Positions 11,347 to 34,362 of a stretch of 34,362 nucleotides of DNA are shown one piece after another. Under the pieces are notes generated by a model that saw only the letters and a list, made by a program, of their open reading frames with translations, made no database searches and was not told the origin of the DNA. The translations under genes were made by a program, and so were the position numbers. Location: contig PMIE01000082.1 in the NCBI GenBank assembly GCA_003156975.1, positions 88,978 through 123,339 of the forward strand, written 5' to 3'. Every line of letters begins with the position of its first letter. Within the stretch, counting starts at the first letter, position 1. This DNA comes from Chloroflexota bacterium. GTDB lineage: Bacteria; Chloroflexota; Limnocylindria; Limnocylindrales; CSP1-4.

Positions 11347-12807
11347 CTAGAGGGCCTTGACCGCCGCCACGAGTTGCTGCAGGCCCTTCTTCGCGTCGGC
11401 AAAGTACATGCCAGTCTTGGGATTCAGATAGAGCGGATTGTCGATGCCCGCGTAGCCGCGTCCCATCGATCTCTTCATGACGATGATCGAGCGGGCCTTG
11501 TCCACGTCGAGGATCGGCATGCCGAAGATGGGGCTGGACCGATCCGCACGCGCCGCCGGGTTGGTGACGTCGTTGGCGCCGACCACGAGTGCAACGTCCG
11601 TCCGTTCGAACTCGGGGTTGATCTCTTCCATCTCGCGCAACTGCGGATAGGGCACGTTCGCCTCGGCCAGCAGCACGTTCATGTGGCCCGGCATCCGGCC
11701 GGCCACGGGATGGATCGCGTATGAGACTTCGATGCCGCGCGCCTCGAGCAGATCGGCCAGCTCGCGGACGCCGTGCTGTGCCTGAGCGACCGCAAGACCG
11801 TATCCGGGGACGATGATGACCTTGCTTGCATAGGCGAGCTGAATGGCCGCGTCGTCGACCGAAACCTCGCGGACCGAGCCGTCCTCACTTGTGAATGCGG
11901 CCTGCGTACCCTCTGCGGCGCCAAAACCGCCGACGAGAATGTTGCCGATCGACCGATTCATGGCCGTCGCCATCAGCCGGGTCAAGATCGCGCCCGAGGC
12001 GCCGACCAGGGCTCCGGCGACGATCAGCATCACGTTGCCGACGACGAAGCCTGCCATCGACACGGCCGTGCCGGTGAAGGCATTGAGCAGCGAGATCACA
12101 ACCGGCATGTCAGCTCCGCCGATCGGCAGAACCATCAGCATTCCGAAAACGAGAGCGCACGTGAGGGCCACGGCAAGGAGCAGATACAGGACGTTGACGT
12201 CGTAGGTGACGATGCCCATGCCCGCAAGAATGAGCACGATCGAGACGCTCAGACCGCAGACCACGACGAACCAGGAGACGATCCGGCCGAATGGGATCAG
12301 GATCGGACGGCCTCTGATGAGGCCCATCAATTTGGCCGATGCGATCAACGAGCCGGTGAAAGTCACCGAGCCGACGATGACGTCGGCCAGGATGAAGAGG
12401 CTGCGCCAGCCGTCAAGGCCGGGCGCGCCGCCGGCCAGCACACGCAGGCCGTCCAGGGCGATGAAGTCGCTGATGGCAAGGAGGGCCGCCGCGCCGCCGC
12501 CGACCGCGTTGAACAGCGAAACCAGCTGCGGCATCTGGGTCATGGCCACAGTTCGGGCCATTCGGAGGCCGAGGCCGCCGCCGACCAGCAGGCCGCCGGC
12601 GATGATCAGCCAGTTGCCGATGCCGACCTGGCCTTCGGCAACGAACGCGATCTCCGCCGCGACGGCGATGATCATGCCGGTCGCGGAGACGCGGTTGCCG
12701 GTTCTGGCGGTGGCGGGGGAGTTCATCAGGTGCAAGCCCACCACGAAGAGAGCCGCTCCCACGATGAAAGCGAGGTGGACCAGGTAGCCGACGTTGGTGG
12801 CGTTCAT
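11347..12807 (-). CDS. pntB: NAD(P) transhydrogenase subunit beta
   Basis: MTQMPQLVSLFNAVGG, PIGGADMPVVISLLN, VPGYGLAVAQAQ, IHPVAGRMPGHMNVLLAEA. Start ATG 12807 with GAAGGA SD. Confidence 0.96.
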   Translation of the reverse strand: MNATNVGYLVHLAFIVGAALFVVGLHLMNSPATARTGNRVSATGMIIAVAAEIAFVAEGQVGIGNWLIIAGGLLVGGGLGLRMARTVAMTQMPQLVSLFNAVGGGAAALLAISDFIALDGLRVLAGGAPGLDGWRSLFILADVIVGSVTFTGSLIASAKLMGLIRGRPILIPFGRIVSWFVVVCGLSVSIVLILAGMGIVTYDVNVLYLLLAVALTCALVFGMLMVLPIGGADMPVVISLLNAFTGTAVSMAGFVVGNVMLIVAGALVGASGAILTRLMATAMNRSIGNILVGGFGAAEGTQAAFTSEDGSVREVSVDDAAIQLAYASKVIIVPGYGLAVAQAQHGVRELADLLEARGIEVSYAIHPVAGRMPGHMNVLLAEANVPYPQLREMEEINPEFERTDVALVVGANDVTNPAARADRSSPIFGMPILDVDKARSIIVMKRSMGRGYAGIDNPLYLNPKTGMYFADAKKGLQQLVAAVKAL

Positions 12808-17923: not shown

Positions 17924-18047
17924 GACGCCAGCCTAGCAGTGCCCGTTGCGAGCAGTCGGCGGGGCGAAGGATGGTCCACGAGGCGCGCCCAGCCGGTGGC
18001 CGGACGCCGCTCCGGGCCGGCCGCGGTATGATGCCGCCAACCGAATA

Positions 18048-18133
18048 GCCTCCGGGGAGCGCACGAGCGCTGAGAGTGCGGCACCAGCCGCAGACCCGCC
18101 GTACCTGATCTGGGTAATGCCAGCGAAGGAAGC
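18048..18133 (+). ncRNA. TPP riboswitch (THI element)
   Basis: GGGGAGC...GCTGAGAG...GACCCG..ACCTGATCTGGGTAATGCCAGCGAAGGAAGC matches the TPP aptamer core; lies directly upstream of thi genes; TATGAT -10 at 18027-18032. Confidence 0.96.
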
Positions 18134-18148
18134 AGGCACGCTAGTCCC

Positions 18149-18185
18149 TCGCCGCGACCCCGCCGGAACGCGGCGATATTTGTCT
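18149..18185 (+). terminator. Expression-platform terminator of the TPP riboswitch
   Basis: tcgccgcg (18149-18156) / cgcggcga (18169-18176) followed by tatttgtct. Confidence 0.6.
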
Positions 18186-32374: not shown

Positions 32375-33130
32375 CTACTGCTTGGCGATGATCGAGTCGA
32401 CGACCTCGTCGAAACTGTGGAAGCCCGGAGCCCTGGGCTCGGCCAGTAGCCACTCGGCGGCGGTTATGGCGCCGGACGAGTACGCAGATCTATCGCGGGC
32501 GGTCAGTCGCATCTCGAGGCTCTCGCCGGGGGCGTCGAAGCCGACGAGGTGCATCCCCGGAGAGGCACCGGCCCGGATGACCGACACGTCCAACTCCTCG
32601 AGAGCGGGAGCGCCATGGACCATCGGCTGGGCCACGCGGGTCTTGCGCGGGTGGGCGGCGATGAGGCGCCGCGAAAGCTCCAGCGCGGTGCCGGAGGGCC
32701 GGTCCGCCTTGGAGCGGCGATGCCACTCGACCAGGTATGGGTCGTAATCCGCGAACGGGCCGAAGAGCCGCGCGGCATCTTCGACGAGACGGGCGAACAG
32801 CATCACGCCGAGGCTGAAGGAGGCCGAGGCCACGGCCGCGGCATCGTTCTGGATGAGCAGGGTCTCGACGGCGTCCCGGTCTGAGGCCCAGTTCGTCGTG
32901 CCGATGACGAAGCGGCGCACGCCGCCCTGCAGCGCGGCCCGGATGTTCTGCAGGACGGCTTCGCCGACCGCGAACTCGAACAGGACCTCCGCGTTCCGGA
33001 AGCTCTCCGGCGAGTGGCCCTCGGCGGAATCCGGCATCCCGAGAATCGCCATCGCGGGCATGCCGCGGCCGGCGAGCGCAGACGCGACCGCACGGCCCAT
33101 GCCTCCGTCTCCGGCGACGATGCTCAACAT
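32375..33130 (-). CDS. dapB: 4-hydroxy-tetrahydrodipicolinate reductase
   Basis: GGMGRAV, VIGTT, FSLGV, VEWHRRSKADRPSGTA, IRAGASPGMH; GGAGGAG SD. Confidence 0.9.
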   Translation of the reverse strand: MLSIVAGDGGMGRAVASALAGRGMPAMAILGMPDSAEGHSPESFRNAEVLFEFAVGEAVLQNIRAALQGGVRRFVIGTTNWASDRDAVETLLIQNDAAAVASASFSLGVMLFARLVEDAARLFGPFADYDPYLVEWHRRSKADRPSGTALELSRRLIAAHPRKTRVAQPMVHGAPALEELDVSVIRAGASPGMHLVGFDAPGESLEMRLTARDRSAYSSGAITAAEWLLAEPRAPGFHSFDEVVDSIIAKQ

Positions 33131-33154
33131 ACGATCTCCTCCGTTGTCTCGTGC

Positions 33155-33193
33155 AAACAGAAAGGCCGCGCCACCAGCATCGGTGTCGCGGCC
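33155..33193 (-). terminator. Attenuator terminator upstream of dapB
   Basis: Minus strand GGCCGCGACACC-gatgct-GGTGGCGCGGCC-TTTCTGTTT, ending 24 nt before the dapB ATG. Confidence 0.85.
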
Positions 33194-33247
33194 TGCGGGA
33201 GCCTCTTGCCCTTCAGCTCCGCGGTTCGTTCCGAACGCCGCCGAGCC

Positions 33248-33316
33248 CTAGGGCCGTGCCTCCCGGCAAGGCCGCCAGCGCTTCGACTTGGGCTTGGCGA
33301 GCAGTTGGACGAACAT
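33248..33316 (-). CDS. Lysine-rich leader peptide (MFVQLLAKPKSKRWRPCREARP)
   Basis: ATG 9 nt after the -10 box; three AAG codons within five codons; its 3' half is complementary to the 5' arm of the downstream terminator. Confidence 0.78.
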   Translation of the reverse strand: MFVQLLAKPKSKRWRPCREARP

Positions 33317-33325
33317 CAGGACTGA

Positions 33326-33354
33326 AGTATGCATGAGCTGGTGGATATGCGCAA
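33326..33354 (-). promoter_or_regulatory. Putative sigma70-type promoter of the dap/lys operon
   Basis: Minus strand TTGCGC (33354-33349)-N17-CATACT (33331-33326). Confidence 0.65.
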
Positions 33355-33524
33355 GAGGCGCGGTGATTATGCATAGTGCATAGGGCTGGAGTGCATATAT
33401 GGCATGCATTCCGGATGGGAAAGAGCGGCTCGAGGAGCGACAAGGGCGGGCACCGGCCCAGACGAGCTAGCCAGGGGGCCGTCGGTGGTCCTGACCCGGT
33501 CGCAACCGCCGAGTCAGGCCACGG

Positions 33525-34362
33525 TCACCGTTTGGTTCGCGGGCTCTGGACCGCATCGAGCGCGAGCTGGCGGACCGAACGATGGTGCGAGACGGTTTCC
33601 ATGTCGCGCCCTACCGCCTCCAGGATCGTGCCGGCGCTTGTGTGCCAGCGCGAAGAGACCTCCCGCGGAGCCTCGCCACCAGATGCGGCTGCGGCCTGGA
33701 CTGCGGCGCCGATGGCAACAAACTCAGTTGACTCCGGTATGGAGATCGCGCGTCCGGATAGACGCTGGACCACACGCCGCCAGACTTCGCCTCGGGCGCC
33801 GCCGCCGATGAGCACCAACGGCGCACCGGCATCGATGCCCGACGAGCACCGGTCGATCGTGTCGAGCGCGTCCAGGAGACTGATCACGGCTCCCTCATAC
33901 GTGGCCATGAGGATCGATCGCGGATCTGTGTCGTGGCGCAGGCCCAGCACCGCGGCGGATGCCGCGGGCAGGTTTGGAGTGCGCTCGCCGTCGAAATAGG
34001 GGAGCGAAACCACGCCCTGGCTGGGGAGGACGTCGTTTCTGTCGAGTTTGAGCCACTCAGCCATACGATCGACTGCAAGCGTGCAGTTGAGGGTGGCGGC
34101 AAGCGGCAGAAAGTGACCGGATGCGTCTGCGAATCCGGCAACCTGGCCGGACGGGTCGGCCGTCCGAGTGGTGGACACGAGATATGCGGTGCCGGATGTG
34201 CCGAGACTGATGACGGGCGTTCCGGGATCTAGCCCGAGGCCCAGTGCCGCGCCCATGTTGTCGCCCGTACCCGGGCCAACGATGGTGCCGGGCCGCAGTC
34301 CCGTGGACGCCGCAGCTTCTGCCGTAACGACGCCTGCAGCTTCGTTTGGTCGCAGAACCTTG
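33525..34362 (-). CDS. xylB: FGGY-family carbohydrate kinase, xylulokinase-like (5' end outside the window)
   Basis: Frame is open to the window edge; GPGTGDNMGAALG, ISLGTSG, VAGFADASG, LPYFDGERTPNLP, LIGGGARG, GAAVQAA. Confidence 0.82.
   Translation of the reverse strand, partial: KVLRPNEAAGVVTAEAAASTGLRPGTIVGPGTGDNMGAALGLGLDPGTPVISLGTSGTAYLVSTTRTADPSGQVAGFADASGHFLPLAATLNCTLAVDRMAEWLKLDRNDVLPSQGVVSLPYFDGERTPNLPAASAAVLGLRHDTDPRSILMATYEGAVISLLDALDTIDRCSSGIDAGAPLVLIGGGARGEVWRRVVQRLSGRAISIPESTEFVAIGAAVQAAAASGGEAPREVSSRWHTSAGTILEAVGRDMETVSHHRSVRQLALDAVQSPRTKR

Follow-up and report, generated by a model that had tools for sequence, protein, structure and literature searches.

A probable lysine-codon leader-peptide attenuator upstream of dapB-dapA-dapD-lysA in a peat Chloroflexota bacterium, and its methionine- and cysteine-codon paralogs

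Genes and Leader of the dapB-lysA Locus

The DNA analyzed here is a stretch of 34,362 nucleotides (nt) of contig PMIE01000082.1 from an uncultured Chloroflexota bacterium from peat, which we refer to as the window. Its minus strand carries genes of the diaminopimelate (DAP) pathway of lysine biosynthesis in the order dapB-dapA-dapD-lysA, preceded by a leader region with a short open reading frame (ORF) rich in lysine codons and an intrinsic terminator. Based on the parts of this leader, their conservation in relatives and, as the strongest line of evidence, paralogs with other sensor codons, we consider it most likely that the region is a ribosome-mediated transcription attenuator which senses lysine via the charging of Lys-tRNA and controls the four genes. 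All coordinates below are those of the window and, unless stated otherwise, of its minus strand.

The dapA (32272-31283; 305 bits), dapD (31286-30474; PRK11830, 256 bits) and lysA (30477-29152; 309 bits) genes all score above their NCBIfam cut-offs, and the start and stop codons of dapA/dapD and of dapD/lysA overlap by 4 nt. The first gene, dapB, extends over 32375-33142 when its Shine-Dalgarno (SD) sequence GGAGGAG (33142-33136) is included, with its ATG at 33130. Its product has a match to Pfam DapB_C (3.1e-24), but its TIGR00036 score of 111.5 bits is below the cut-off of 122. Thus the operon named in the original prediction, which was made from the sequence of the window, stands by NCBIfam scores for its last three genes, and for dapB by the Pfam match and not by TIGR00036. 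The protein encoded at 32375-33130 is atypical in that its Pfam DapB_N score of 22.8 bits is also below the cut-off (25.6).

The leader begins with a -35-like hexamer TTGCGC (33349-33354) and, 17 nt after it, a -10-like hexamer CATACT (33326-33331), which is itself located 9 nt before the leader ATG at 33316. The leader ORF (33248-33316) has 22 codons that specify MFVQLLAKPKSKRWRPCREARP, followed by a TAG stop codon (33250-33248). Three of its codons, K8, K10 and K12, are AAG (33295-33293, 33289-33287, and 33283-33281, respectively; the span is 33281-33295) and are evident both in the sequence and in relatives. From the last of these codons to just beyond the stop codon the RNA is predicted by RNAalifold to form a GC-rich hairpin, hairpin A (33244-33282), with a GNRA-type loop, GGGA, and with the stop codon inside it. 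Within the ORF, over codons W14-E19, is the 5' strand of a putative antiterminator, GCGGCCUUGCCGGGAG (segment 1, 33260-33275), as determined from the alignment of relatives and by RNAduplex. The 3' strand of the antiterminator, CUCCCGCAGGCCGC (segment 3), lies at 33188-33201, and the 6 nt at its 3' end also form the beginning of the 5' arm of the intrinsic terminator. The minimum free energy (MFE) fold places the terminator at 33155-33193, as a GC-rich stem-loop (33193-33164) followed by the U-tract TTTCTGTTT (33163-33155), just before the dapB SD sequence. Promoter, leader ORF, AAG codons, terminator stem and U-tract were all found at the minus-strand positions where the original prediction had placed them, and the complementarity that it had described between 33275-33260 and 33201-33188, with two one-base bulges, was confirmed with an RNAduplex energy of -28.2 kcal/mol.

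Two smaller hairpins occupy the spacer between hairpin A and the terminator. The first, GUUCG-GAA-CGAAC (33224-33236), was read off the alignment by eye; its loop is variable, and its stem shows wobble changes and one double change among relatives (CUUU/GAAA in L008). The second, hairpin P3 (GGAGCU...GGCUCC, 33198-33220), is present in both the MFE fold and the alignment, where it was read across genera with sequence variation, and its 3' strand overlaps the 3' strand of the antiterminator.

Distribution of the Leader among Relatives

The close relatives of the window DapB are encoded by metagenome-assembled genomes (MAGs) titled Chloroflexota, Candidatus Limnocylindria or Limnocylindrales, which originate from peat, fen, permafrost and soil. 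DapB orthologs were identified in 23 of the 24 other genomes of the genus, and the leader ORF, the Lys codons and all of the helices recur in each of the 24 same-genus upstream regions, with a leader length of 22 codons in 21 of them, 24 codons in two and 29 codons in one. Beyond the genus, blastn searches with the leader produced matches in 146 of 401 family genomes, representing 30 of 49 genera (a tally that includes G121). The conserved core was held by 90 of the 91 loci that were fetched, and all 75 distinct loci that were aligned have the element, including the leader ORF. Similarly, 77 of 80 dapB loci from named Limnocylindria MAG records have the ORF and core, and two of the three loci in which they were not found have <100 nt of upstream sequence.

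A covariance model built from 74 leaders matched 32 of 44 family genomes and three of 50 genomes of a sister family, and gave no match in three other families of the class (0/6, 0/49, and 0/1 genomes). In the small-genome sister family there was no DapB match in any of 16 genomes. Where a genome has two copies of the element, both are upstream of dapB-like genes. Matches to the core motif outside the class, found in a scan of 401 genomes of the phylum (G508 and G768), were in unrelated contexts and were rejected as chance.

The region between the attenuator and dapB differs among some relatives. In one locus (L003, genome G012) the attenuator is separated from the dapB SD sequence by an insertion of ~170 nt that consists of ~11-nt repeats (GGCCACTCGGC-like). 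Loci of other genera (L057, L086, L092, and others) have a stretch with CCUCC, downstream of the terminator and before dapB, that can pair with the GGAGG of dapB. The latter observation hints at an extra SD-sequestering hairpin in those genera, one that is absent from the leader of the window.

Leader ORF, Promoter and Lysine Codons

A -10-like hexamer was found 6-10 nt before the start codon of the leader in 56 of the 75 loci, with TTGnnn 16-18 nt further upstream (TTGCnn or TTGACA in relatives) and without an SD sequence for the leader ORF. Because the promoter lies immediately before the ORF, which lacks an SD sequence, the transcript is predicted to begin 0-3 nt before the leader ATG and, therefore, to be leaderless or nearly so. 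The original prediction that the leader is translated almost without a 5' leader of its own is in keeping with this fixed distance.

The spacing on the other side of the start codon is similarly constrained. In the 56 loci for which a promoter was called, the distance from the start to the first antiterminator codon, CGG, is 14 codons in 40 and 15 in 11, with values of 11, 21 or 27 codons in the remaining five; frame and distance to the structured core are fixed, and the N-terminal codons vary freely. Among the 24 members of the genus, all have K10 and K12, and 19 have K8 as well. Every one of 65 distinct leaders has between two and four Lys codons, in patterns such as K-P-K-S-K, K-K-K, K-K-S-K-K, K-Q-K, and K-R-K. 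In the eight codons before the core, Lys (AAG or AAA) fills 177 of 520 slots in frame, and the counts for the two other frames are 1 and 4. As a background, Lys accounts for 23 of the 2011 residues (1.1%) encoded by five long ORFs of the window. Synonymous AAG to AAA changes also occur among relatives.

There are two further observations regarding the promoter region. Repeated (T)ATGCAT and AGTGCATA motifs, partly palindromic and with a spacing of 35-40 nt, are located at 33328-33412 of the window, where they overlap the -10 region and extend upstream of the promoter, and relatives have similar TGCATA words. These motifs are candidates for an operator or a second promoter. In another locus (L005, genome G014) the -10 region and first codons are tandemly duplicated (TTGATGCATAATCCGCGGACCATGTT occurs twice).

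Three Mutually Exclusive Helices

Judged from the alignment, three mutually exclusive helices, hairpin A (segment 1 with segment 2), the antiterminator (segment 1 with segment 3) and the terminator (segment 3 with segment 4), are conserved and each has compensatory changes. In hairpin A, 98.5% of 333 alignment cells are paired and three of 14 pairs change on both sides. The double changes are CGC/UAG to CGU/UAA (five sequences), UGG/UAG to CGG/UGA (one sequence), and GCC/GGC to GUC/GAC (two sequences). The first of these combines an Arg CGC to CGU change with a change of the stop codon from UAG to UAA, and so is synonymous on both sides. The loop of the hairpin is GGGA, GUGA or GCGA, all of the GNRA type.

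For the antiterminator, 98.3% of 600 cells are paired and three of eight pairs have changed on both sides; one U-A pair in the window, for example, is A-U in its nearest relative. Seven cells changed on both sides, a value reached in none of 500 shuffles, although such controls overstate the support because the relatives are not independent of one another. The terminator is similarly constrained, with 98.2% of 673 cells paired and three of nine pairs changing on both sides. In two lineages (L089 and L190), segments 1 and 4 each have a C to U change, and these are accompanied by a change from G to A in segment 3. The alignment of dapB upstream regions that the original prediction had called for thus shows conservation of the Lys codons and compensatory changes in both of the helices that it had described.

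The three helices have similar calculated free energies. For the window leader these are -26.9 kcal/mol for hairpin A, -28.2 kcal/mol for the antiterminator duplex (RNAduplex), and -23.8 kcal/mol for the terminator. The corresponding means for the 75 loci are -26.5, -25.6 and -24.7 kcal/mol, and the upper part of hairpin A has a mean of -16.2 kcal/mol.

Paralogous Leaders with Methionine or Cysteine Codons

In addition to its matches at dapB, the covariance model has weaker, full-length secondary matches at other loci, of which 22 were listed and 18 were fetched; those left out are two that overlap primary matches on the opposite strand and, besides these, G162:C54 and G824:C127:10303. The fetched leaders (among them L206-L222, from other genera of the family) have the form M..TTVSWL-M-C-M-RWRPRR(A/V)EDGV before the stop codon, and each has the hairpin and the terminator. 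Their sensor codons are M-C-M in 16 of 18, M-Q-M in one and R-C-M in one. A homolog of MetY (O-acetylhomoserine sulfhydrylase) is encoded downstream in 17 of the 18 loci, with a small OsmC-like gene in between in two.

The genome from which the window is derived has a paralog of a third type. Its best secondary match, on contig 3 (42104-42200, minus strand), is a leader encoding MHSRLHTCFCPRRPRRRR with a terminator, upstream of a serine O-acetyltransferase gene whose product scores 153 bits against a cut-off of 150. The leader at this locus (contig 3, 42043-42303, minus strand; L193/L226) is near-leaderless, like the dapB leader, and the gene is of the cysE/EpsC type. A blastn match to this Cys leader is present in all 41 genus genomes searched, that of the window included, and the C-x-C codons are kept in all 22 loci that could be parsed (of 25 fetched; three were not parsed). 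A scan of the same genome for copies of the core identified only the Lys and Cys elements, other matches (at six places) having the appearance of chance, and a Met-type leader was not found at ≤3 mismatches in this genome, which is 85% complete.

In the Lys, Met and Cys families alike the sensor codons occupy positions -5 and -3, counted from the CGG codon at the start of the antiterminator. As the codons carried on one scaffold track the pathway of the downstream genes, which neither an aptamer nor an arrest peptide would predict, we favor ribosome-mediated sensing. We also think it probable that Limnocylindria have a modular family of paralogous near-leaderless attenuators, which have been retargeted to Lys, Met/Cys or Cys by two to three codons at fixed positions on one RNA chassis. 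By the same reading, this chassis would consist of the GC-rich hairpin, the antiterminator core GCGGCCC(C/U) and the terminator. If so, the M-C-M leaders would represent leader-peptide attenuation by methionine codons, for which we know of no precedent, the literature that we searched having been aimed at lysine.

Other regulatory features were also observed. On contig 25 of the same genome, ~300-170 nt upstream of position 11823 (plus strand), a TACACT hexamer is followed by a small ORF, MTRISYSSSLLLT, with three terminal Leu codons and next by a hairpin that has a U-tract, and the gene downstream is leuA-like. This looks like a separate leucine leader-peptide attenuator built on a different scaffold. 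Upstream of 42901 (plus strand) on contig 2, a T-box-like string, AATGTGGGTGGCACCGCGG, and two tandem terminator-like hairpins precede a trpE-like gene. The window itself contains a thiamine pyrophosphate riboswitch on its plus strand (18043-18149; 65.8 bits vs. a gathering score of 54.3), the one Rfam match in the window that reaches its gathering score.

Proposed Mechanism and Its Alternatives

We propose that transcription would start at the leader AUG or no more than ~3 nt from it. When lysine is plentiful, all 22 codons would be translated and the ribosome would leave at the stop codon, upon which hairpin A would close over the antiterminator strand, segment 3 would pair with segment 4, and RNA polymerase would terminate at 33155-33163. 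With scarce lysine, the ribosome would be expected to stall with K8 or K10 in its A site (K12 being less useful), just 5' of hairpin A, where it would cover the lower 5' arm of the hairpin and keep the lower stem open, leaving GCGGCC(C/U)U free. The remaining upper stem (~-16 kcal/mol) would then be outcompeted by the antiterminator (~-25 kcal/mol), segment 1 would pair with segment 3, and the operon would be transcribed since the terminator would be blocked. Termination is likely to be the default state because hairpin A hides segment 1. This amends one part of the original prediction, according to which full translation of the leader masks the antiterminator and so allows termination: hairpin A, which had been missed, and not ribosome masking alone, likely sets the default. 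The wider reading of the leader as a Lys-codon leader-peptide attenuator is supported by the comparative evidence, that is, the frame of the codons, the covariation of the helices and the Met and Cys paralogs.

Folding of the leader with a ribosome placed on it is consistent with parts of this scheme. In these masked folds the RNA was cut before segment 4, and the pairing of the 5' arm of the terminator with segment 1 was taken as the readout. That pairing was 0.80-0.83 when the A site was 5-7 codons before the CGG codon (K10 and K8 of the window leader), and ~0.32 when the ribosome was over segment 1. An antiterminator of the classical 2:3 type, in which the 3' arm of hairpin A would pair with segment 3, was considered on account of its self-complementary GGCC, and was rejected as its pairing was ≤0.13 at every ribosome position.

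There are, however, several points that weigh against the lysine-sensing attenuator that we propose. With the A site 3-4 codons before the CGG codon (K12 of the window leader), the pairing was only 0.47-0.53, as a stall there covers part of the antiterminator strand. It was already 0.64 with no ribosome, and it reached 0.81 for a ribosome whose A site contained the stop codon; thermodynamics alone, therefore, fix neither the lysine logic nor its sign. Furthermore, in equilibrium folding of the full-length leader the terminator is kept at every ribosome position (mean P 0.68-0.95), so that the model rests on kinetics; the design of the leader fits a kinetic switch. The Lys codons are few (two to three), the shuffle controls are generous for the reason given above, and a simple consensus scanner reported no promoter-like and no terminator-like sites in 32800-33700, the terminator being visible instead in the MFE fold of the leader and in the alignment. 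Finally, the RNA data, which are Logan contigs of four metatranscriptome runs and carry neither ends, strand nor level, include a contig of the window's own sequence (X17, 33293-33432) which extends >100 nt upstream of the predicted start. This may reflect DNA carry-over, read-through from an upstream gene, or evidence against a leaderless start. X17 also has several contigs of relatives over 33239-33336, and another contig (X16, 33051-33228) crosses the terminator into dapB with no mismatches.

These folding values also bear on a scheme that uses the same parts with a different logic. In it, the antiterminator would depend on translation, with a ribosome that lingers at the stop codon covering segment 2 and freeing segment 1, or else the sign of the lysine response would be reversed. 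If the antiterminator depended on translation, read-through would report general translation or coupling and not lysine specifically. Such a scheme would be expected to have high segment 1 pairing with the stop codon in the A site, as in the masked fold above, and a stop codon inside hairpin A, as is the case in all sequences. However, it leaves unexplained both the fixed positions of the Lys codons and the Met and Cys codons before metY and cysE, and the ~55-60 nt from the stop codon to segment 3 provide time for ribosome release. We therefore regard it as improbable. The opposite emphasis, that the switch consists of RNA only and is bound by a metabolite or protein, with AAG triplets that belong to an RNA motif and an open frame that has no role of its own, is in our estimation similarly improbable. 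The near-absolute conservation of the CGGCCCUGCCGGGAGGCACGG nucleotides, with hardly any synonymous change, and the order of hairpin, antiterminator and terminator, which resembles a riboswitch expression platform, could be read in its favor. Against this, the ~21 nt from the 5' end predicted at the AUG to the Lys codons are too short to accommodate either an aptamer or Stem I of a T-box, hairpin A has the simple structure of a stem with a GNRA cap, and AAG triplets are confined almost entirely to one frame (177 vs. 1 and 4). In addition, the start codon and frame are kept despite the freely varying N-terminal codons, and the paralogs combine a common core with pathway-matched codons. The Rfam scan that the original prediction had suggested found no match to any family in the leader (32800-33700), even at E values up to 10. 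The lysine riboswitch (RF00168) was matched neither in the leader nor in the 85%-complete genome, and control genomes do match it. A T-box reading of a UGGC in the leader had been considered and was rejected based on the lack of an Rfam match, the lack of space for Stem I and the fact that the Cys paralog is without UGG.

The remaining alternative, and the one to which we give the least credence, is that the leader senses by nascent-peptide arrest, as TnaC and SpeFL do, and that K-R-W-R-P-C-R-E-A-R would halt the ribosome, either alone or together with a small ligand. From genus to genus the core of the peptide is conserved, with R-W-R-P and R-R-P-R-R also in the paralogs, and it is rich in basic residues, including K/R-x-K/R motifs. 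A K/R-x-K/R motif could also recall macrolide-type arrest; the genes downstream here are biosynthetic. The C-terminus of the peptide, however, differs between genera (ending in RP, RA, RALGL, or longer tails), and residues change where RNA pairs change (P16S, C17R/S, R18P/C/L, and E19M/Q/K), with synonymous change in the conserved core only at the unpaired N of the GNRA loop. The conserved W-R-P-C-R-E-A-R is thus explained by RNA constraints and not by peptide function. A divergent homolog from the sister family (L224) points the same way, as it keeps the Lys codons (E-A-K-S-K) and the antiterminator pairing and has a different peptide otherwise. Consistent with this, a conserved C-terminal arrest motif under selection at the amino-acid level, of the TnaC, SecM or SpeFL type, was not found among the leaders.

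Comparison with Known Systems

Genes for lysine and DAP synthesis are textbook targets of riboswitches or regulatory proteins, and the lysine riboswitch (L-box, RF00168) controls dap and lys genes via a terminator in other phyla. Unlike that riboswitch, the leader described here would sense by codons and not by an aptamer. An abundant, uncultured class of peat and soil Chloroflexota appears to use codon-based sensing by the ribosome instead. Lysine leader-peptide attenuation has reportedly been described for the aminoadipate-pathway lysine cluster of Thermus thermophilus, in a paper said to have appeared in J Biol Chem in 2005, and we know of no other lysine leader-peptide precedent. Compared by description only, the two systems would share Lys codons in a leader peptide and transcription attenuation of lysine biosynthesis genes, and they would differ in pathway (aminoadipate vs. 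DAP) and in phylum.

No account of DAP genes under the control of an attenuator with Lys codons was found in the literature searched. According to the conclusions of PMC1262725, lysine operons of Actinobacteria are not preceded by any conserved RNA element that could be seen, and PMC10117765 proposes a Thr/Lys-codon small ORF before aspartate dehydrogenase in Sinorhizobium; lysine, dapB and dapA are not mentioned in PMC2965389. The leaderless polycysteine small ORFs of mycobacteria are similar in that a leaderless short ORF is the first cistron and codons for the amino acid of the pathway are the sensor (bioRxiv 10.1101/834739). As far as the excerpted text of that report extends, they act on translation, by SD occlusion in a very stable duplex, and an intrinsic terminator is not involved (bioRxiv 10.1101/834739). 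Going by the same excerpt, the element here is unlike them in its conserved terminator and U-tract and, in the window, in its free SD sequence.

The series of Lys, Met-Cys-Met and Cys-x-Cys codons on one scaffold constitutes a natural codon-swap experiment, which backs the proposed mechanism without the need for a culture. The element may also be of practical use, in synthetic biology as a compact amino-acid sensor that can be retargeted, and in Limnocylindria MAGs as a marker for the annotation of regulons.

Classical leader-peptide attenuators, which follow the Yanofsky model, control the trp, his, leu, thr, ilv, and phe operons. The Limnocylindria element resembles these in its short ORF rich in codons for the end product, its terminator before the first gene, its mutually exclusive antiterminator and its likely default of termination. 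The original prediction of a trp/his-type geometry is upheld with regard to the ORF, the terminator and the exclusive antiterminator, but not with regard to topology. The classical order of 1:2, 2:3 and 3:4 pairings is replaced by 1:2, 1:3 and 3:4, since segment 3 pairs with segment 1, and the pairing of segment 2 with segment 3 does not exceed the 0.13 given above. In contrast to the classical attenuators, the Limnocylindria antiterminator would use segment 1, which lies within the ORF just 3' of the sensor codons and is hidden by the downstream segment 2, and the element concerns lysine and the DAP pathway and is near-leaderless without an SD sequence for its ORF. The proposed attenuator therefore differs from the trp/his class in four ways: its amino acid and pathway, its near-leaderless start, its 1:3 antiterminator with a downstream anti-antiterminator, and its family of retargeted paralogs.

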